Part shown: piece after piece, positions 13,916-43,407 of the stretch
How positions within the stretch are numbered: the first letter of the stretch is position 1
Layout of the letters: the number at the start of each line of letters is the position of its first letter
DNA from: an uncultured archaeon
GTDB lineage: Archaea > Thermoproteota > Nitrososphaeria_A > Caldarchaeales > Wolframiiraptoraceae
Direction of reading: 5' to 3'
Length of the DNA: 64,000 nt
Assembly (NCBI GenBank): GCA_938083505.1
Contig: CALKCF010000006.1
Location: forward strand, 38,819 to 102,818
Notes under the pieces: model-generated
What the model saw: only the letters and a program-made list of their open reading frames with translations
Told to the model about the DNA's origin: nothing
Database searches by the model: none
Made by a program: the position numbers and the translations under genes

Positions 13916-14155
13916 ATGTCTAAGCTTAAACATGGACCTCTACTTTTAGGTACTCTTCTTCACAGTATAGATAACGAGCTTGTATTGAAGGGAAAGATTG
14001 TTCCAAAACCAGGAGTTAAAGTTTACGATGAGGAGCTTAAACATGTTGGCTACGTTTCAAACGTTTTTGGACCAGTCAATTCGCACTTTGTGACCATAAA
14101 GTTTACAACTGAGAGGCAATATTCACAGGGTTCAAAATTTTACATTATGGAGTGA
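13916..14155 (+). CDS. gar1: H/ACA ribonucleoprotein component Gar1
   Basis: GKIVPKPGVKVYDEELKHVGYVSNVFGPVNSHFVTIKF is the Gar1 beta-barrel signature. Conserved position upstream of tfb. Confidence 0.85.
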   Translation: MSKLKHGPLLLGTLLHSIDNELVLKGKIVPKPGVKVYDEELKHVGYVSNVFGPVNSHFVTIKFTTERQYSQGSKFYIME

Positions 14156-14161
14156 ATTTTT

Positions 14162-15091
14162 TTGTCACGGGTTGTGCATGACGAAACGGCAACAAGATGT
14201 CCTGAGTGTGGTAGCTCGAATCTATTGTTTGATAAGTCTAGCGGCGAAGTCGTTTGTGTGGATTGCGGCTTTGTTATAGTTAACGTCACAGCAGACTTAG
14301 GACCAGAATGGAGAAGTTTTGACCAAGATAAGGATGGAAAAAGGACGCGAGTAGGTGCTCCGATAACTTTAGTCATGTACGATCTGGGTCTTTCGACCAA
14401 GATAGGATGTAGGGATGTAAAAGGTAAGAACATTTCGGAACTGCAGGCTGGAGTATTATCCGTTATTAAGAAATGTGAGAAAAGGACAATGATAAACGGT
14501 GCCGCAAGAAGCTCCATAAGGGGTCTATCAGAGATTGCAACTATATGTCTGAAGTTAGGTCTGCCGACAAACGTGATGGAAACGGCGAGCCTCATATACA
14601 GAAAATTAGTAAAGAGGAGTGTGATGCGTGGCAGGTCCATAAGAAACACGGCAGCCGCTACTGTTTACCTAGCTTGTAAGCAATGCGGTATTCCTAGGAT
14701 GCTAAGCGAGATAGCTATGGCATTAAATTTAAATAAAAAGGAGATAATGAAATGTTACCGATTCCTTATTAACAAATTGAACATAACATCACCTTCATCG
14801 GATACCAAACTGTACGTTTCAAGGTTTGTTAATAATTTTAAGATAAGGGGTGACGTTGAGAGGCTGGCAATCGAGATGCTGGAACATGCAAGGACGTGCG
14901 GCCTAATAGATGGTAGAGGCCCTGTAGGTCTGGCAGCAGCTGCGACATATTTGGCTGCAACCCTTATGGGTTACAAGCTAACTCAACGAGAAGTTGCCGA
15001 GGTTGCGAAGGTGACCGAAGTAACCATTAGGAACAGGTATAAGGAGTTGTTGGAAAATACTAGAATATATCTCGAGCTGGAGGTCGAATAG
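14162..15091 (+). CDS. tfb: Transcription initiation factor IIB (TFB)
   Basis: N-terminal zinc ribbon CPECGSSNLLFDKSSGEVVCVDCG, followed by two cyclin-fold repeats. Confidence 0.9.
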   Translation: MSRVVHDETATRCPECGSSNLLFDKSSGEVVCVDCGFVIVNVTADLGPEWRSFDQDKDGKRTRVGAPITLVMYDLGLSTKIGCRDVKGKNISELQAGVLSVIKKCEKRTMINGAARSSIRGLSEIATICLKLGLPTNVMETASLIYRKLVKRSVMRGRSIRNTAAATVYLACKQCGIPRMLSEIAMALNLNKKEIMKCYRFLINKLNITSPSSDTKLYVSRFVNNFKIRGDVERLAIEMLEHARTCGLIDGRGPVGLAAAATYLAATLMGYKLTQREVAEVAKVTEVTIRNRYKELLENTRIYLELEVE

Positions 15092-18581: not shown

Positions 18582-19295
18582 TTATTTTTGTCTTTTCGGT
18601 GAGTATTTTGCCAAGACCATAATATGGTCCTGCTCATACTTTTCCAAGTCGACTTTCTCAAGCACGACGAAACCGTTGCTCTCCAGCACCGCAATCTCTT
18701 GCTTGTAAACTTTGCTGGGTTCTTCAACACTATCTATGCTCCTCGCCTTTATTGCTATCATGGCCAACCCACCATCCTTTAGCATAAGCCTGGAATTCTC
18801 GACCAGTATCTTAGCCTGTTCCGGCTGAGCGATGTCACAATAGATGAAATCTACTTGGCCCACGATAGATTTGTAAGTTGCGGGAAATCTGGCGTCTGTG
18901 TATATTGCTATGACGTTCTTTCTCCTATCGGCGACGTTACGCTTAAACTGTGCCAAAACCATCGGTGCAAAATCGATGCCGTAAAGCATGCCCTTCTCGC
19001 CGATTATGTCGGAGACGTGACTTGCGGTCGTCCCTGACGCAACACCTAGGTACAGTACCTTACATCCTGACCTAATACCTATTTCCTTAATACCTGAGAG
19101 AATTGCGGCCGCTAGCTTGCTCCTATAAGGAATCCATTCTCGGTACTCCTCATCTCCTACCCTGAATAACCTTTCACCATATACCCTGAAGCCCTTATCC
19201 AGGTTTCTGGTCATGAGTATCTTCTCATCATCCAAATAAGCCCAATATACGCCGTCAAACTTCTCATGCTTCTTAACGCTTAACACTCTAACCAC
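18582..19295 (-). CDS. flpA: Fibrillarin-like rRNA/tRNA 2'-O-methyltransferase
   Basis: KVLYLGVASGTTASHVSDI SAM-binding motif. Adjacent to nop5. Confidence 0.9.
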   Translation of the reverse strand: MVRVLSVKKHEKFDGVYWAYLDDEKILMTRNLDKGFRVYGERLFRVGDEEYREWIPYRSKLAAAILSGIKEIGIRSGCKVLYLGVASGTTASHVSDIIGEKGMLYGIDFAPMVLAQFKRNVADRRKNVIAIYTDARFPATYKSIVGQVDFIYCDIAQPEQAKILVENSRLMLKDGGLAMIAIKARSIDSVEEPSKVYKQEIAVLESNGFVVLEKVDLEKYEQDHIMVLAKYSPKRQK

Positions 19296-33100: not shown

Positions 33101-36100
33101 TTGTATGGGATACCACCTGAGTTCGCTGAATACTATGCCCGGATTGTGGAAAAGGTCAAAGAAGAACACAGGATAGCATCCGAAGCCAGGAAAAAGTTGG
33201 GCACAATTATTGACGAGGTCGAGACGATAATCGCTGAAGACATGGCTGAGAGGGTAGAGTTACTTGTTGGTCCTGAAGGTATAGCTGAGAAGATAAGATC
33301 TTTAAAAAAGAAACTTTCAAGAGAACGTCTAGCATTTAAGCTTGCAGAGGATATCATATACACTTCGATAGGAAAGCTGAAAGAAGAGGTTGCTATTAAG
33401 CAGGCGCTCTGCACCGCGCTCGCAGTCATGACACCGCCATGCATAACTGCTGCGCCGAGTGAAGGTATTGCAGATGTGAAGATTAAAAAGAATCCAGACG
33501 GGACAAATTATCTGGCAGTTTACTTTGCAGGTCCTATAAGGGCTGCTGGCGGAACTGAGCTAACAGCAACCGTCATATTGGCGGACTATATCAGAAGGTT
33601 GCTGAATTTGGACAGATATAAACCTACGGAGGAGGAGATCAAACGGTTCAAAGAAGAGCTTAGGACTTATGTACGTATGGTTAGCAGATTTCAGTATAAC
33701 GTTCCGGATCACTTGATAGAAAAAGCATTAAGAAACATACCCGTGGAGGTTACGGGCGTTCCTACGGACAACATTTTGGCACCATCTTATAGAAACCTAC
33801 CTAGAGTTGAGACAAACTACTTAAGAGGTGGTGCCCTGAGGGTCATAAACGACGGTATAATCGGAAGGGCAAGAAAAGCGCTTAAGCTTGTCGAGATGCT
33901 CAGTTTATCCGGATGGGAATGGTTACGTGAGGTTGCTGAGGAGTTCAGCAGAATGCACTCTGCTAGCTCAGCCGAAGAGAGCTATCTAAACGAGGTCATA
34001 GGAGGTAGACCCGTGTTTTCCTTGCCAGATGCATTTGGCGGATTCAGGTTGAGATATGGCCGTTCTTATAACACAGGCATGGCAGCCGTCGGCGTACATC
34101 CTATGACCATGAAAGTACTTGAAGGTTACATAGCAACGGGCACACAGTTAAAGCTCGATTATCCCGGAAAGGGCGGTGTCGCGATGCCAGTAGACACCAT
34201 TGAGCCGCCAAGGGTGCTACTAGACGACGGGTCTGTTGTAAAGGTTGATAACGACTTAACTTATGCCGAAATAAAGAACAAGATTGTAAAGATTCTTTTC
34301 CTTGGCGATATTCTAATATCATTTGGGGATTGTGTAGAGAATAATGTTGAACTTAGACCAGTCGGTTATTGTGAAGAGTGGTGGGCACTGGATTTAAAAA
34401 AAGAAGTAACGAGAGCTGGTGAAATTGAAAAAGTCGCGAAAATGCTGAACATAGACTCCGAGCGTCTCAGATTCTTAGTAGAGAAACCCCTTCTCATCAA
34501 ACCAACGGATAGGGAAGCTTTAAAGTTGAGCTTCAAACTAAAAGTTCCGCTTCATCCAACTTACTGTTGGTTTTGGGAAAACATCAGTGTGAATGAATTA
34601 AAGATGTTAAAAGACTGGTTAGAGAAATCTAGGACGCGATGCAAAATTTATAATGGAAAGGTTTGGCTACCGTTTGATGAAACGATACACAACATCTTGA
34701 TCAAAATGGTACTCGAGCATCGGATCGACGGAAAGTATGTGGTTCTCGACATATCGAGCTATAGGGTGCTTTTAGCACTTCTGGCACAACCGAGAAATGT
34801 GCTGAATTCCGTAAACGATACTCTGGAGGCAATATTTGTAATTTCAGGCATAACTCTAAGAAGAAAAGGCGAAACTTTCCTAGGCACGAGGATGGGCAGG
34901 CCGGAAAAGGCGGGAATGAGAGTAATGAAACCACCCGTGCACGTGCTATTCCCAGTAAGTCTTAAAGGAGGTGCGTCAAGAGATTTAATGAATGTCGTTA
35001 AATCTGGAGAAAGAGTGCTCGTAGAATTAGCCCGACTTGAATGTCCAAAATGCGGCTCCATAAGTTGGAAATCCGTTTGTGAAAACTGCGGCGCAAAAAG
35101 AAGACCAGTAGGTATATGCACAAAATGCTCGTTAAAAAATTATAACATTGAGATTAAAAATTGTGAAAGATGCGATGGCAAGATTTCTTATACAGATAAG
35201 TTTTCTCTGGACATTAGGACAGAATTTTTGCAAGAATGTAAACGTTTATTCACTGAAATGCCTGAAAAGATTAAAGGGGTTCGTGCACTCACAAGCAGAA
35301 TCAAAATTCCGGAGGATATTGCGAAAGGAATTCTTAGGAGCAAATACGGCCTGTCTGTTTACAAAGATGGGACCGTCAGGTTTGACGTGACGAACGCACC
35401 ACTTACACATTTTACACCATGTCAAATCTCAACAGATGTTAGCGTTCTAAGAAGTTTAGGCTATACCCATGATGTTGAGGGTAAGCCATTAACGAGCATG
35501 GACCAGATATGTGAGCTGAAACCCCAAGATTTAATAATACCTAGAAAAGCTGCTGAGCACCTCATTAAGGTCTCTAAGTTCGTAGATGAGGTTTTGGAAA
35601 AGCTCGCTGGTATGCAACCTTACTATATGTGTAATAAACCTGAGGACTTGATCGGTAAGCTAGTTGCATCGCTTTCCCCACATACTTATGTAGCAACTGT
35701 AGGGAGGATTATCGGTTTCATTGACGCTGACGTATGTTTTGCGCACCCCCTCTTTCATGCATCGAAAAGGCGTGATTGTGATGGTGATGAGGATAGCCTA
35801 ATGCTTTTGCTTGATGTTTTTATAAACTTCTCTAGGATGTACTTGCCTGACAGAATTGGTGGAAAGATGGATGCCCCCTTACTAATAACACCAATAGTCT
35901 ATCCAGATGAGGTTGATGAACAGGCTCATAATTTGGATATCGCCTACGCATATCCGTTAGTGTTGTATGAGGCAGCAGAAAAGATGGAACCATCTGCCAA
36001 ATTATCAAACGTTATCGCAACAATAAAATTGAGACTTGGATCTGCTGAACAGTACGGTGGATTTGGGGTTACGCATATAACACATAATCTCATTGCTAAT

Positions 36101-36547
36101 GTGAGTTCTGCTTATAAGCAGAACAGATCAATGTTCGAAAAGGTCGTGGATCAAATAAGGTTAACGGAGATGTTATCTTCTGTCAATATAGAAAAAGTTG
36201 TCGAGAATATCGTATCGTCGCACATACTTCCGGACGTTGCTGGTAACATGAAAGCATTTTTTGTTCAAAGTTTCAGATGTAAAAAGTGTAATGCTAGGTT
36301 CAGACGGCTTCCGCTAAATGGGCAATGTAATAAATGTGGCTCTAATTTAATACAAACAGTTTTCCGCGGAGCTATCGAGAAGTATGTTGAATTGTTAGAA
36401 TATACAGTATCTAAGTACATACATACTCCATATCTTAAGGAGAGGGTAAGTATAGTAATAGAGAATATTCGAAGTACATTCATATCTCAAGGCGAAACGT
36501 CGTTGAACACGAAGCAAGTTTCACTAGAGAACTTTATTGGAAGTTGA
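33101..36547 (+). CDS. polC: DNA polymerase II (PolD) large catalytic subunit DP2
   Basis: 1148 aa. Conserved DP2 N-terminus (YYARIVEKVKEEH...AEDMAERVELLVGPEGIAEKI) and C-terminal Zn fingers (CPKCGS...CENCG; CKKCNARFRRLPLNGQCNKCG). No intein insertion. Confidence 0.9.
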   Translation: MYGIPPEFAEYYARIVEKVKEEHRIASEARKKLGTIIDEVETIIAEDMAERVELLVGPEGIAEKIRSLKKKLSRERLAFKLAEDIIYTSIGKLKEEVAIKQALCTALAVMTPPCITAAPSEGIADVKIKKNPDGTNYLAVYFAGPIRAAGGTELTATVILADYIRRLLNLDRYKPTEEEIKRFKEELRTYVRMVSRFQYNVPDHLIEKALRNIPVEVTGVPTDNILAPSYRNLPRVETNYLRGGALRVINDGIIGRARKALKLVEMLSLSGWEWLREVAEEFSRMHSASSAEESYLNEVIGGRPVFSLPDAFGGFRLRYGRSYNTGMAAVGVHPMTMKVLEGYIATGTQLKLDYPGKGGVAMPVDTIEPPRVLLDDGSVVKVDNDLTYAEIKNKIVKILFLGDILISFGDCVENNVELRPVGYCEEWWALDLKKEVTRAGEIEKVAKMLNIDSERLRFLVEKPLLIKPTDREALKLSFKLKVPLHPTYCWFWENISVNELKMLKDWLEKSRTRCKIYNGKVWLPFDETIHNILIKMVLEHRIDGKYVVLDISSYRVLLALLAQPRNVLNSVNDTLEAIFVISGITLRRKGETFLGTRMGRPEKAGMRVMKPPVHVLFPVSLKGGASRDLMNVVKSGERVLVELARLECPKCGSISWKSVCENCGAKRRPVGICTKCSLKNYNIEIKNCERCDGKISYTDKFSLDIRTEFLQECKRLFTEMPEKIKGVRALTSRIKIPEDIAKGILRSKYGLSVYKDGTVRFDVTNAPLTHFTPCQISTDVSVLRSLGYTHDVEGKPLTSMDQICELKPQDLIIPRKAAEHLIKVSKFVDEVLEKLAGMQPYYMCNKPEDLIGKLVASLSPHTYVATVGRIIGFIDADVCFAHPLFHASKRRDCDGDEDSLMLLLDVFINFSRMYLPDRIGGKMDAPLLITPIVYPDEVDEQAHNLDIAYAYPLVLYEAAEKMEPSAKLSNVIATIKLRLGSAEQYGGFGVTHITHNLIANVSSAYKQNRSMFEKVVDQIRLTEMLSSVNIEKVVENIVSSHILPDVAGNMKAFFVQSFRCKKCNARFRRLPLNGQCNKCGSNLIQTVFRGAIEKYVELLEYTVSKYIHTPYLKERVSIVIENIRSTFISQGETSLNTKQVSLENFIGS

Positions 36548-37885: not shown

Positions 37886-38772
37886 AAATGTTAACGGCCA
37901 TAATACTTGCAGGAGGTCTATCAAAGAGATTTGGTGGAGATAAACTGCTTATTGAAATTAACAACACGACAGTGCTCATGAGGGTTGCAAAAGCGGTTTA
38001 TGAGGTGGCAGATAAAGTCCTGATTTCCGTAAAAGACGAAATGAAGGGGCAACTGTTAATGGAAAAACTAAGAGATCTTTGTCAAGGAATCGTGACAGAC
38101 CTAGAAGATGTGGAATTTGGCGGACCCCTTAGAGGCATGATTAGTTGTATTTCGAAAGTTGGTTTAAACGAGGTGCTTTTTGTACCAGGCGATATGCCTT
38201 GGCTGGAGGCAGACCCTCTGGTTTCTTTTCTCGAGACATGCAAATCCTACGATGCTACAGCGGGTAGCATAATATGGGATAACGGGCTGGTAGAGGTGCT
38301 AATCCAGTACCACAGCAAAAATACCAAATTGGAAAAGATTGTCGATGCATGTAAGGCAAGAGGCAAGATTGCTAGGGTCTCCGATATGCTTAGGGCCTCT
38401 GAAAAAACATGTTATATACCTGCTGGTAACTTAACAGAAAAGCCATTAGTCTTCAACAACATCAACACATTAGAAGATTTAATGAATCCTAAACCAAAAG
38501 GGCGTTTAACAAAAGGAGAGGTGGTCACTGTAATGTCAAAGCATTTTTGGAAGGCTTTAGAATCTTGGAAGTGTAAGAACTTTACGTCGGCCGCAGAGCT
38601 CTATGAATGCGAAGGAGATATCAATGCATCATTCGGCGTGAATCATATAGCTCTACATGCGTATATAGATGCCTCTATATGTTTTGGTTTAGGATCCATA
38701 CATAATAGTAATTTAGAGGAGAAAATAAGTCGGGAAAGGTTAAGGCTCAATCTATCCCGTAATGAAGCTTGA
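37882..38772 (+). CDS. mobA: Molybdenum cofactor guanylyltransferase MobA with a C-terminal extension domain
   Basis: TAIILAGGLSKRFGGDKLL nucleotide-binding motif. Overlaps the moeA stop. Confidence 0.7.
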   Translation: MKMLTAIILAGGLSKRFGGDKLLIEINNTTVLMRVAKAVYEVADKVLISVKDEMKGQLLMEKLRDLCQGIVTDLEDVEFGGPLRGMISCISKVGLNEVLFVPGDMPWLEADPLVSFLETCKSYDATAGSIIWDNGLVEVLIQYHSKNTKLEKIVDACKARGKIARVSDMLRASEKTCYIPAGNLTEKPLVFNNINTLEDLMNPKPKGRLTKGEVVTVMSKHFWKALESWKCKNFTSAAELYECEGDINASFGVNHIALHAYIDASICFGLGSIHNSNLEEKISRERLRLNLSRNEA

Positions 38773-39334
38773 TCAAAGAGAGCAACATTTTGTAAACTTC
38801 GTCCTCATTCAACCCAGTCGTATCTAAAACGACGTCAAACGGGCTCAGATCACTTTCGAGCGAAATCCCATACAATCTGTTGTATATGTCTTTACTTTCC
38901 GAGTCACGCTTCCTCAACACCTCCTTTGCAACATCTACTGGCAACCCGCTCCTCTTTGAGAGTCTCCTTGCTCGTTCGTCCTCGCTAGCCTTAAGCCATA
39001 TTTTGTAGCCATCTTTCAGTAACCAAGGTAGGACCCAGCTATCGATCACGACGTCGCCTTTAGATGCCAGCTCAAGTAGTTTTGCATCGACGAGCTTATC
39101 AAACTCTGGGTTTGACAACCTTTCTTCGAGAAACTTAAGACCATCCGGTTTCTCCCACCAGTCTTCGCCCCCTGGTCTATAGCCCCTTTCGATGGCTAGC
39201 TGTTTTAATGCCTGGCCACCAGAAATGTATTTAATGTTCAAAGCTTTGGCAAGTCTTCTAGCAACTGTACTTTTTCCTGTGGCGGCAAGACCGCTGATAC
39301 ATATTACTAACCTTCCTCTGCGGCAGTTTTCCAT
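38747..39334 (-). CDS. cmk: Archaeal-type cytidylate kinase
   Basis: P-loop ICISGLAATGKST. Lid arginines. About 195 aa. Confidence 0.75.
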   Translation of the reverse strand: MENCRRGRLVICISGLAATGKSTVARRLAKALNIKYISGGQALKQLAIERGYRPGGEDWWEKPDGLKFLEERLSNPEFDKLVDAKLLELASKGDVVIDSWVLPWLLKDGYKIWLKASEDERARRLSKRSGLPVDVAKEVLRKRDSESKDIYNRLYGISLESDLSPFDVVLDTTGLNEDEVYKMLLSLIKLHYGID

Positions 39335-41490: not shown

Positions 41491-41772
41491 TTGAAGGCCG
41501 AGATCGGAAGAATATGTTTTAAGATTGCAGGTAGAGAGGCTGGACAAAAATGCGTAATCGTCGGTGTTATTGATAAGAATTTTGTTTTGGTGACAGGCCC
41601 GAAAAATTTGACCGGTGTTAGACGCAGGAAAGTGAACGTTTCACATCTAACCTTTACGCCGTATAAAATTAACATAAAGGAGAACGCATCAGACGAAGAA
41701 GTTCTAAAAACTATACAAGAATCCGGGCTTATGGATTTTATGAAAGAGGAGGCGAAGGTTAAGTTTGAATGA
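41491..41772 (+). CDS. rpl14e: 50S ribosomal protein L14e
   Basis: EIGRICFKIAGREAGQKCVIVGVIDKNFVLVTGP matches the KOW-like L14e core. Starts with TTG. Confidence 0.8.
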   Translation: MKAEIGRICFKIAGREAGQKCVIVGVIDKNFVLVTGPKNLTGVRRRKVNVSHLTFTPYKINIKENASDEEVLKTIQESGLMDFMKEEAKVKFE

Positions 41773-42816
41773 CGTAGTTGGGAGCCTTGTTCCACCCTGG
41801 CAACATGAGAGAAGGACAATAGTGAGGCTTGAGGCTGAAACCAACCCAAATTATGGATACAATCCTTATGAGAGACCTATCAGGATGCACCTGAAGTTAG
41901 GCGTTATTAATCTCGATAAACCAAAGGGACCTACAAGCCACGAAGTATCCTCGAAAATAAAAGATCTGTTGAGAGTGGAACGGGCTGGTCATGGCGGGAC
42001 CCTAGGAGGCTTTAAGCCTGGGGACATCCGGCCGTTTCCGGCGTGTTGCCAATATTGTTAGAAGAATCTACAAAATGCGCTAAAGCAATTATGCAAGCCG
42101 GAAAAGAATATATCTGTCTGATGAGGTTACACGATGACGTTTCTGATGAAAAACTCTTGGAAGCAGTAAAGCTCTTCACCGGGCAGATATACCAGATACC
42201 ACCAGTAAGATCGTCCGTTGTGAGAAAACCAAGGGTGAGAACGATATATTCAGCAGAGATAATCGAGCGGAGCGGCAGGGATGTTTTGATGAAAATAGCT
42301 TGTTCTGGTGGAACTTATATAAGAAAATATTGTCATGACTTAGGGCTATACTTAGGATGCGGAGCACATATGCAGGAACTCAGAAGGACAAGAGCTGGAC
42401 CCTATGAGGAGGGGTTTTCGTTCAGCTTATTGGATGTTTATGAAGCCGTTAAACTTTATAAAGAAAATGGTGAGGAGCGTATGTTGAGGGACGTCGTTCA
42501 ACCTGTAGAGACTGCTGTCAAATTATTACCAAAGGTCTACATATTAGATTCAGCTGTTGATGCTATATGTCATGGAGCTAACTTAACGGTAGCAGGTATA
42601 TCTAAACTTGATGATGAAATAAAACGCGGCGATGAAGTGGCTATCATGACATTAAAAGGTGAGCTCGTTGCACTTGGCAGAGCACAGATGAGTACTGAAG
42701 AGATTTTAAACATCCTCAAGGGAATAGCTGTGGATATTGAAAGGGTTATCATGGATAGGGGTACTTATCCTTCCGTCTGGAAAAGGGGCAGCAAAGATTT
42801 TAATGGTTCAATTTAA
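41765..42816 (+). CDS. cbf5: tRNA/rRNA pseudouridine synthase Cbf5 (H/ACA RNP), interrupted by a 20-nt intron. Exon 1 is 41765-42005 and exon 2 is 42026-42816.
   Basis: The two ORFs 41765-42061 and 42043-42816 are halves of one TruB/Cbf5 protein. Removing 42006-42025 joins ...AGHGGTL to D-PAVSGVLPILLEESTK..., which reconstitutes the catalytic motif GHGGTLDP. The PUA domain is at the C-terminus. Confidence 0.85.
42006..42025 (+). other. Putative bulge-helix-bulge-type mRNA intron within cbf5 (GAGGCTTTAAGCCTGGGGAC)
   Basis: 20 nt, which is 2 mod 3. This is the only excision that restores both the frame and the catalytic Asp codon (G|AT). It contains an internal AGGCT-TTA-AGCCT hairpin. The 5' junction sits in a 3-nt bulge (AGG) between a CCCT/GGGG helix and the AGGC/GCCT helix. 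Confidence 0.6.
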
Positions 42817-42840
42817 CCTAAATTTTGGAAGTAACTTATC

Positions 42841-42926
42841 GCCGGGGTAGCCTAGCGGATAAGGCGCAGGCCTTGAGAGCCTGTGACCCTATGAGGGTCG
42901 CCTGGGTTCGAATCCCAGCCCCGGCG
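42841..42926 (+). tRNA. tRNA-Ser (anticodon UGA)
   Basis: Acceptor stem GCCGGGG/CCCCGGC with discriminator G. D-arm GCCT/AGGC. Anticodon stem CAGGC/GCCTG with loop CTTGAGA, so the anticodon is TGA. 18-nt variable arm GACCC/GGGTC. T-arm CTGGG-TTCGAAT-CCCAG. No encoded CCA. T-run downstream. Confidence 0.85.
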
Positions 42927-43407
42927 TCAACTACCACTGTTGGATTTTTGAACGAACCTACTTTCTGACAATTTCTCATTATGATCTGAAAACGTCTTCA
43001 TTCAAACAAGTGACGAAGTGTGAGCTGTTAGCAGATGGTATAAAGATTCTGGAACGTGAGAAAAACCGTAATGGATGTGGTAAGACATGGATGTCACTCT
43101 TCGTCTATTTTGTTTATATGCCTAGTTTTTAGCTGATAGACAGACAGCAGCAAAACTACCCTCATGATTGTCACCATTATCAAGAGGTAATTTGAGGTCC
43201 TAATGTAACTCTTTTCTGAAGGCATATCGCTTAAATTTTCCACGAGTCATTCTAAGGTCATTAGCTTTGTTGCGATTTCATGATACGTAGAACATACCAA
43301 TATTCGAAGTTTTGTTCAAAGAATTGAAAATTAATTTCCCAAATTATCAAACGATTTGAATTTATCTTAAAGGTTATAAGGTTGTATGATAATCTTAGGA
43401 GCTGAAC

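Follow-up and report, generated by a model that had tools for sequence, protein, structure and literature searches.

A 64,000-nt stretch of DNA from an uncultured hot-spring archaeon, referred to here as the window and the source of all coordinates given, carries the essential gene for the pseudouridine synthase Cbf5, which is interrupted by a 20-nt insert at 42006-42025 on the + strand (GAGGCTTTAAGCCTGGGGAC). On the evidence of sequence comparison, this insert is very probably a genuine archaeal bulge-helix-bulge (BHB) intron of the cbf5 pre-mRNA, which would be removed through cleavage by the tRNA-splicing endonuclease EndA followed by ligation by RtcB. The gene is split, a single excision restores both its reading frame and its catalytic motif, and a BHB motif lies in the register of that excision; among relatives the arrangement is conserved, the paired positions covary, and both exons are under purifying selection. 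Introns in archaeal protein-coding genes are extremely rare.

Organization of the cbf5 locus

Two + strand open reading frames (ORFs), at 41765-42061 (98 aa) and 42043-42816 (257 aa), overlap at the insert. When the first is read without interruption its translation ends in ...GHGGTLGGFKPGDIRPFPACCQYC followed by a stop, the catalytic GTLD motif is lost, and 18 further codons follow the Leu codon before termination at 42059-42061. All deletions of 5-59 nt with a length equal to 2 mod 3 and a start between 41990 and 42044 were scanned. The frame is left open by 967 of them, and GTLD is obtained only with a start at 42006 and a length of 20 nt (...GHGGTLDPAVSGVLPILLEESTK...). The protein predicted after this excision is 343 aa long, and its matches to the Pfam domains DKCLD, TruB_N, TruB_C_2 and PUA all exceed the curated cut-offs. 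The gene was identified as cbf5 from this domain set and from the best unsplit homologs, which carry the name Cbf5. Identity between the spliced protein and unsplit Cbf5 of other Nitrososphaerota is 62-68% over ~96% of the length.

A preliminary description of this DNA, made from the letters alone, had given the insert with exactly these coordinates and this sequence. It had also recognised the two ORFs as the halves of Cbf5, stated that continuous reading destroys GTLD and terminates early, and claimed that no other excision recovers both the frame and the Asp codon; the Pfam domains, the unspliced translation and the single solution of the deletion scan agree with it on each count.

The insert interrupts the codon of the catalytic Asp after the first letter, with G at 42005 and AT at 42026-42027. 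The predicted spliced junction is ...GGGACCCTAG|ATCCGGCC..., and the sequence expected across it (GGCGGGACCCTAGATCCGGCCG) is 20 nt shorter than the gene. The parts of the gene are as follows.

41765-42005, + strand: cbf5 exon 1, with DKCLD (spliced residues 15-61) and the start of TruB_N; the final G is letter 1 of the Asp codon
41765, + strand: putative TTG start, the mechanical start of the ORF
42006-42025, + strand: predicted BHB intron GAGGCUUUAAGCCUGGGGAC, 20 nt, the sole deletion restoring the frame and GTLD
42026-42816, + strand: cbf5 exon 2, opening with AT of the Asp codon and encoding TruB_C_2, PUA and the remainder of TruB_N; stop codon at 42814-42816

Predicted RNA structure at the junctions

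The region folds as a strict hBHBh' motif, in which two 3-nt bulges on opposite strands are separated by a 4-bp central helix (H) and bordered by flanking helices, here an outer helix (h) and an inner helix (h').

41991-41999, + strand: outer helix h, 5' strand (AUGGCGGGA); pairs with 42027-42035 through 3 bp beside the motif (GGA/UCC), a G.G mismatch and 5 bp
42000-42003, + strand: central helix H, exon strand CCCU (Thr and Leu codons); pairs with GGGG at 42020-42023
42004-42006, + strand: 5' bulge AG|G; predicted cut between 42005 and 42006
42007-42019, + strand: inner helix h' of 5 bp, AGGCU (42007-42011) with AGCCU (42015-42019), and loop UUA (42012-42014)
42020-42023, + strand: central helix H, intron strand GGGG
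42024-42026, + strand: 3' bulge AC|A; predicted cut between 42025 and 42026
42027-42035, + strand: outer helix h, 3' strand (UCCGGCCGU; Asp, Pro, Ala and Val codons)

The archaeal splicing endonuclease cleaves between nucleotides 2 and 3 of each bulge (PMC2738675). Cuts are thus predicted after 42005 and after 42025, and these equal the excision that restores the frame and the Asp codon. Folding together with this rule therefore places the junctions where the preliminary description had put them, at endonuclease cut positions of a BHB. The AGGCT-TTA-AGCCT hairpin, the CCCT/GGGG helix and the AGG bulge that it listed are likewise present, but its term "relaxed" for the arrangement does not hold. 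The motif is strict and canonical; the 3' bulge ACA (42024-42026) and the outer exon-exon helix had been overlooked in that description. The ACA bulge is also present in the unconstrained minimum-free-energy fold, and a consensus computed independently with RNAalifold from 10 full junction sequences is a BHB with two 3-nt bulges.

Distribution in Terraquivivens and selection on the gene

The genomes nearest to the window in a scan of genome collections are Ca. Terraquivivens tengchongensis, T. yellowstonensis and T. ruidianensis, and on sequence similarity the host is assigned to Ca. Terraquivivens of the Caldarchaeales (formerly Aigarchaeota). This genus, which occurs at hot-spring sites of Tengchong, Yellowstone and the Great Basin, is placed in the family Wolframiiraptoraceae of the Nitrososphaerota, a grouping equivalent to Caldarchaeales or 'Aigarchaeota' (PMC9246946). 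The host hence lies outside the Desulfurococcales and Sulfolobales, the published range of the cbf5 intron, and the window encodes the PolD large subunit DP2 at 33101-36547; both points had been anticipated in the preliminary description, which set the host apart from the classical crenarchaeal carriers.

When the protein database was searched with the spliced Cbf5, the closest entries (73-100% identity) were without exception C-terminal fragments, 231-257 aa long, and the nearest full-length proteins reached at most 67% identity. The C-terminal ORF of the window genome is itself recorded as a 241-aa fragment. In the DNA behind these fragments, from metagenome-assembled genomes at NCBI, JGI metagenomes and Logan assemblies, the order is L14e, cbf5 exon 1 and cbf5 exon 2. 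Every Terraquivivens-type relative found (73-87% protein identity; ~20 independent assemblies, loci L001-L015, L020, L021, L023, L026, L027 and L097) carries the intron. In most of them the junction reads GGGACCCTAG|GAGGCTT(T/A)A(A)GCCTGGGGAC|ATCC, with variation only at the loop or the loop-closing pair, and the intron of the metagenomic locus L097 is identical to that of the window. The junction of L014, the locus at 73% protein identity, is GGGACCCTAG|CGCTCTAAAAGCGGGGAG|ATCC; here the intron is 18 nt with an in-frame TAA, and the inner stem differs yet pairs (GCU/AGC). An in-frame GGFKPG-like insertion, named in the preliminary description as an argument against splicing, was sought in the orthologs and found in none, the close relatives having the same 20-nt out-of-frame insert and L014 the 18-nt form with its stop.

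Neighbour joining of spliced Cbf5 sequences places the intron-bearing members of Terraquivivens and L014 in a monophyletic group, and their sister group is formed by intron-less Caldarchaeales that include Wolframiiraptor. No intron is present in the nearest Caldarchaeales Cbf5 genes (L017-L019, L022, L024 from Wolframiiraptor, L025 and L028).

Locus L026 (JAGTRG010000051.1) is labelled 'Candidatus Bathyarchaeota archaeon JZ-2_2_bin_4.3.1', yet over the ~75 nt inspected its junction matches Ca. Terraquivivens ruidianensis (L027) at every position. Its label or binning is probably wrong.

The window gene was compared in the spliced frame with those of five Terraquivivens relatives. Synonymous divergence (dS) is 0.6-1.4, and the ratio of non-synonymous to synonymous divergence (dN/dS) is 0.06-0.15 over both exons, with 0.08-0.15 in exon 1 and 0.06-0.11 in exon 2. 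Across the Terraquivivens species the intron differs at 0-2 positions, whereas 42-63% of synonymous sites differ. These values indicate that the gene is functional and that the intron sequence itself is constrained.

They also bear on the simplest alternative, that the 20 nt are spurious through a sequencing or assembly error, or that a recent frameshift has left a decaying pseudogene. In its favour, gene callers give two ORFs in all databases, and the fragment on record for the window genome is of this kind. However, the same insert occurs in ~20 contigs assembled independently from different samples and species, it is far better conserved than synonymous sites, and the 18-nt variant of the deeper relative retains the structure. 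The genome scan showed a single cbf5 locus per Terraquivivens genome. The low dN/dS in both halves and the conservation of the intron together rule out assembly error and pseudogene decay, and this alternative is considered highly improbable.

Introns at the same codon in Bathyarchaeia

An insert at the identical site was found in 25 loci labelled Bathyarchaeia or Bathyarchaeota out of the 80 genome loci returned. Bathyarchaeia genome loci with the intron are L030, L032, L034, L037, L038, L040, L041, L044, L046, L048, L053, L060, L062-L065, L075, L079-L082, L084, L086 and L089. Five other loci with Bathyarchaeia labels (L029, L056, L057, L078 and L090) lack it, as do all euryarchaeal, Asgard and DPANN loci among the 80. 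Most sampled Bathyarchaeia genomes thus appear, from these junctions, to carry a BHB intron in the Asp codon of cbf5.

Metagenomic loci (L097-L216) were collected with a frame-agnostic pattern that specifies exon bases only, GGTCAYGGYGGRACYYTWG N{14,44} AYCCNNNNGTNNCNGG. At least 114 distinct junctions stand among the matches listed; their introns are 14-40 nt long, and the counts by length mod 3 are 39/35/40. In the genome loci, 25/25 Bathyarchaeia introns have a length divisible by 3, which was suspected to reflect a bias of tblastn ranking, and in view of these metagenomic lengths the apparent rule was rejected as an artefact. Helix H, which the pattern leaves unspecified, pairs at 4/4 positions in 107 of 114 metagenomic junctions among the matches listed.

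Covariation was assessed in 25 distinct junctions reduced to 40-nt constructs of the structural positions, each joining 15 nt from the end of exon 1, 5 nt from the start and 10 nt from the end of the intron, and 10 nt from the start of exon 2. Standard pairs occupy 95.3% of cells compared with 87.0% in column shuffles, and none of 500 shuffles reached 95.3%; when the register is slid, 24-58% of cells are paired. Double changes occur at six pairs. H is paired in 100% of cells and includes a pair at which CG and UA double changes stand at 13:12, the exon side of that pair being position 3 of the Thr codon. In h', each of the four pairs closest to the bulge has undergone compensatory double changes between lineages, and in the outer helix 93% of cells are paired over the four pairs nearest the motif. 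The codons around the site are near-fixed in intron-bearing genes as GG(G/A) AC(C/U) CU(A/U) G|A(U/C) CC, whereas intron-less relatives use varied synonymous codons, and the structure of the RNA therefore constrains the coding sequence.

All 25 Bathyarchaeia introns from the genome scan contain in-frame stops. Among the matches listed, so do 100 of 115 distinct metagenomic introns, against ~35 for shuffled introns, and 77 of those 100 stops among the matches listed fall at the same codon (GTL-E-A-stop, motif GGCUUAA). Selection to stop translation of unspliced mRNA at once may account for these stops, as may common descent by itself, which inflates the count.

The same comparisons bear on two explanations that dispense with splicing. 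The first is translational recoding, in which the ribosome would shift frame or bypass the 20 nt, as in phage T4 gene 60. The hairpin within the insert would suit such an event, and the stop soon after the Leu codon in most Bathyarchaeia versions has a superficial likeness to bypass signals. Against this, GAU arises only by covalent joining of G 42005 to AU 42026-42027, and ribosomes read contiguous codons. There is no CUA landing codon after the insert, and after a simple -1 or +2 shift GGFKPG would still be read and the Asp would be missing. Among the matches listed, the inserts are 14-40 nt long and fall in all three phases, which fits a rule of RNA structure and not a recoding signal. Recoding is scarcely credible here.

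The second is a permanently split Cbf5, with the two ORFs translated separately into a two-piece enzyme. A possible GTG start for the second ORF at 42043 overlaps the end of the first, which would allow this, but neither polypeptide would hold the catalytic Asp or an intact GTLDP. In every lineage the break lies exactly, to the nucleotide, at the cleavage sites of the BHB. The start of the C-terminal ORF varies among relatives (231-257 aa), so no start codon appears to be conserved, and a two-piece enzyme is very unlikely. An intron removed from the pre-mRNA remains the preferred reading.

A further locus, L218 (JGI 3300041075, Ga0452204_043989), has a cbf5 of the HSGTLD type whose Asp codon lacks an intron. 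Between the NLD and KPPGPTS codons, at ~1432-1473, it has a 42-nt insert that contains stops and permits a BHB drawing in which the outer helix is weak (CUGG AU|A GCUUG...CAAGC CCAG AA|A); the insert may represent a second cbf5 intron site. At ~1866 a 5-nt tandem duplication (AACTA AACTA) shifts the frame, and L218 may be a damaged gene copy.

Points weighing against an intron

Several observations count against the interpretation of the 20 nt as an intron. BHB-like motifs are common by chance in the window. When strict 3-4-3 BHBs with flanking helices of at least 3 bp were counted, 175 were found on the + strand and 157 on the - strand, compared with ~144 per strand in shuffles, and the rate is 5.5e-5 per (position, length) combination. 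Since chance motifs are this frequent, the structure alone is weak evidence. The improbable part is that the motif coincides with the single functional excision, and it is the conservation and covariation seen among relatives that decide whether the predicted intron is real.

The unconstrained minimum-free-energy fold of the window sequence favours a 7-bp helix, CCCUAGG/CCUGGGG, that absorbs the 5' bulge. For the 45-nt core at 37 C, the BHB fold has -21.9 kcal/mol and the minimum-free-energy fold -22.3 kcal/mol, a gap of 0.4 kcal/mol that is narrower at 65-80 C. The alternative helix is peculiar to the Terraquivivens version with its AGG bulge and is impossible in the Bathyarchaeia versions. 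By masking the bulge at the 5' splice site, it could modulate the efficiency of splicing. A G.G mismatch interrupts the outer helix beyond its first 3 bp, and genes for EndA and RtcB are not among the 30 window ORFs scanned with Pfam.

Proposed splicing pathway

The transcript would fold GGGA-CCCU-AG of the exon with GGGG-AC-A-UCC of the intron and exon into the canonical hBHBh' form, with AGGCU-UUA-AGCCU as the inner hairpin. EndA would then cut each bulge between nucleotides 2 and 3, after 42005 and after 42025, and the RNA ligase RtcB would join the exons to create the GAU codon of the catalytic Asp and the 343-aa Cbf5 frame. From unspliced mRNA only a 98-aa fragment without the catalytic Asp would be made, and since that mRNA codes for no catalytic Asp, production of active Cbf5 would depend on splicing. 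Cleavage, ligation, the enzymes responsible and any regulatory role are what we infer from the arrangement of the gene.

Relationship to known BHB introns

The closest counterpart is the crenarchaeal cbf5 intron (Watanabe 2002; Yoshinari 2006; Yokobori 2009, PMC2738675), with which the window intron shares the gene, the insertion point, the size class and the fit to cleavage between bulge nucleotides 2 and 3. The published introns are 16-44 nt, occur in Sulfolobales and most Desulfurococcales, and interrupt the codon of the catalytic Asp after its first letter (PMC2738675); the window intron, at 20 nt and without an ORF, falls within this range. The hosts differ, being Thermoprotei in the published cases and a member of the Caldarchaeales/Aigarchaeota with PolD here. 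Most published crenarchaeal introns are 'unconventional' BHBs thought to need heterotetrameric EndA, whereas the Terraquivivens intron is strictly canonical. An (alpha-beta)2 EndA has been reported for Aigarchaeota, and the three EndA types assayed all excised a canonical BHB intron (PMC5829648).

A direct comparison is provided by a Sulfolobales-like contig, L217, which is 72% identical to the S. solfataricus exon-2 fragment given in the supplement of PMC2738675. Its junction, CCCU AG|A GCCCCUUUAAUGGGGC GGGG AG|A CCCC, has the exon context, H helix and bulges of the window, and its outer helix starts with an A.C mismatch. L217 was the one useful match of 8 obtained with a single exon-2 fragment as query. 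With a profile built from the S. solfataricus, S. tokodaii and A. pernix fragments (Yokobori supplement), all matches were short proteins without a split, and no named Sulfolobus or Aeropyrum genome was among the matches to the crenarchaeal queries.

L217 (ENA ERZ27247214, k141_63101) has a further frame break at ~926, downstream of the intron, and its gene is called as three ORFs. The contig has low coverage, and this break probably arose in assembly.

Canonical archaeal tRNA introns (hBHBh' at position 37/38, cut by EndA and ligated by RtcB) have the identical motif geometry and a comparable length, and from this shared geometry the same enzymes would be expected to act (PMC5829648). They differ in that the window intron lies in a protein-coding mRNA without a tRNA body. 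The exon half of its motif is made of codons, and the choice of those codons (GGG ACC CUA G|AU CC) is therefore constrained by RNA structure. The BHB element of Haloferax volcanii HVO_1309 (PMC7714728) is also in an mRNA and also processed by the splicing endonuclease, but it is located in the 5' untranslated region rather than in a codon, its host is euryarchaeal and its sequence is unrelated. A more distant parallel is Ire1 splicing of HAC1/XBP1 in eukaryotes, where a protein endonuclease and a tRNA-type ligase together take a short intron out of a coding mRNA, which alters the frame or the product (PMC4090602). The Ire1 system uses another endonuclease and a motif of paired stem-loops, is regulated by stress and is evolutionarily unrelated.

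A 2020 paper describes the cbf5 intron as known in Crenarchaeota only (PMC7714728), and one from 2025 cites just the cbf5 studies of 2002, 2006 and 2009 (PMC12397907). Searches of the open literature and bioRxiv, with subscription journals partly covered, found cbf5 introns reported for crenarchaea only, and none for Aigarchaeota, Bathyarchaeota or Thaumarchaeota. The mechanism and the gene are already known, and the novelty lies in the lineages and in the motif being canonical.

Possible evolutionary history

Published analysis placed the intron's gain in the ancestor that Desulfurococcales and Sulfolobales share (PMC2738675), an origin that the introns of Caldarchaeales and Bathyarchaeia challenge. 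There is about an even chance that the window intron, spliced in the same way, arose by independent insertion or was acquired by horizontal transfer, and shares no ancestor with the introns of Sulfolobales, Desulfurococcales and Bathyarchaeia. The nearest Caldarchaeales are without an intron, and it is absent from Thermoproteales, Cenarchaeum, Nitrosopumilus and Korarchaeum (PMC2738675). The codons of the invariant G-T-L-D-P supply the motif's exon half (GGGA...CYCU AG / A UCC), so that the site is pre-adapted to insertion. On the other side, the position, the phase, the H helix CCCU/GGGG and a similar size are common to the three lineages, and the inner stem is similar, AGGCUUUAAGCCU in the window and GGCUUAAAGCC in many Bathyarchaeia. 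Because loss of the intron is documented within Desulfurococcales (PMC2738675), a patchy distribution would be expected under inheritance too.

It is possible, though less likely than not, that the Asp-codon intron is one ancient element, which Thermoprotei, Bathyarchaeia and Nitrososphaeria inherited from their common (TACK or Thermoproteota) ancestor and which was lost many times. If so, no older intron would be known from an archaeal protein-coding gene, and the fact that it was kept, along with selection for stops that follow at once in frame, would reflect a conserved function, the coupling of rRNA/tRNA pseudouridine synthase synthesis to the cell's EndA/RtcB capacity for RNA processing.

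With >100 natural variants, the choice between a single ancient origin and repeated gain at a pre-adapted site becomes directly testable, and the same variants form a large natural mutational dataset for the rules of EndA substrates in an mRNA context. Annotation is affected as well. Gene callers split or truncate cbf5 in these lineages, the entries for Terraquivivens relatives in the protein database are all fragments, and the cbf5 gene models of these genomes need joining.

Surrounding genes

The gene order in the window is cmk, MobB, L14e, cbf5 and tRNA-Ser(UGA), and it is shared with Terraquivivens relatives as far as cbf5. Parts of this neighbourhood are at 41491-41772, 38747-39334 (- strand) and 42840-42928. 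The L14e stop overlaps the presumed TTG start of cbf5, and an Rfam scan of the window returned the tRNA-Ser only.

The search for other BHB introns in window genes gave 55 ORF-fusing motifs, and those outside cbf5 lie at the boundaries of neighbouring ORFs or in spurious frames. The most convincing of them in appearance, a strict BHB of 24 nt at 14136-14159 on the + strand with an outer helix of 5 bp and an inner helix of 6 bp, spans the gar1 stop and the tfb start. It was judged a chance match because its removal would fuse gar1 and tfb, two unrelated complete genes.

Gar1, the H/ACA ribonucleoprotein (RNP) partner of Cbf5, is encoded at 13916-14155 on the + strand (Pfam PF04410, E = 1.3e-11) and is directly followed by the gene for TFB (14162-15091). 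Fibrillarin is encoded at 18582-19295 on the - strand, in the same 64-kb window as cbf5.

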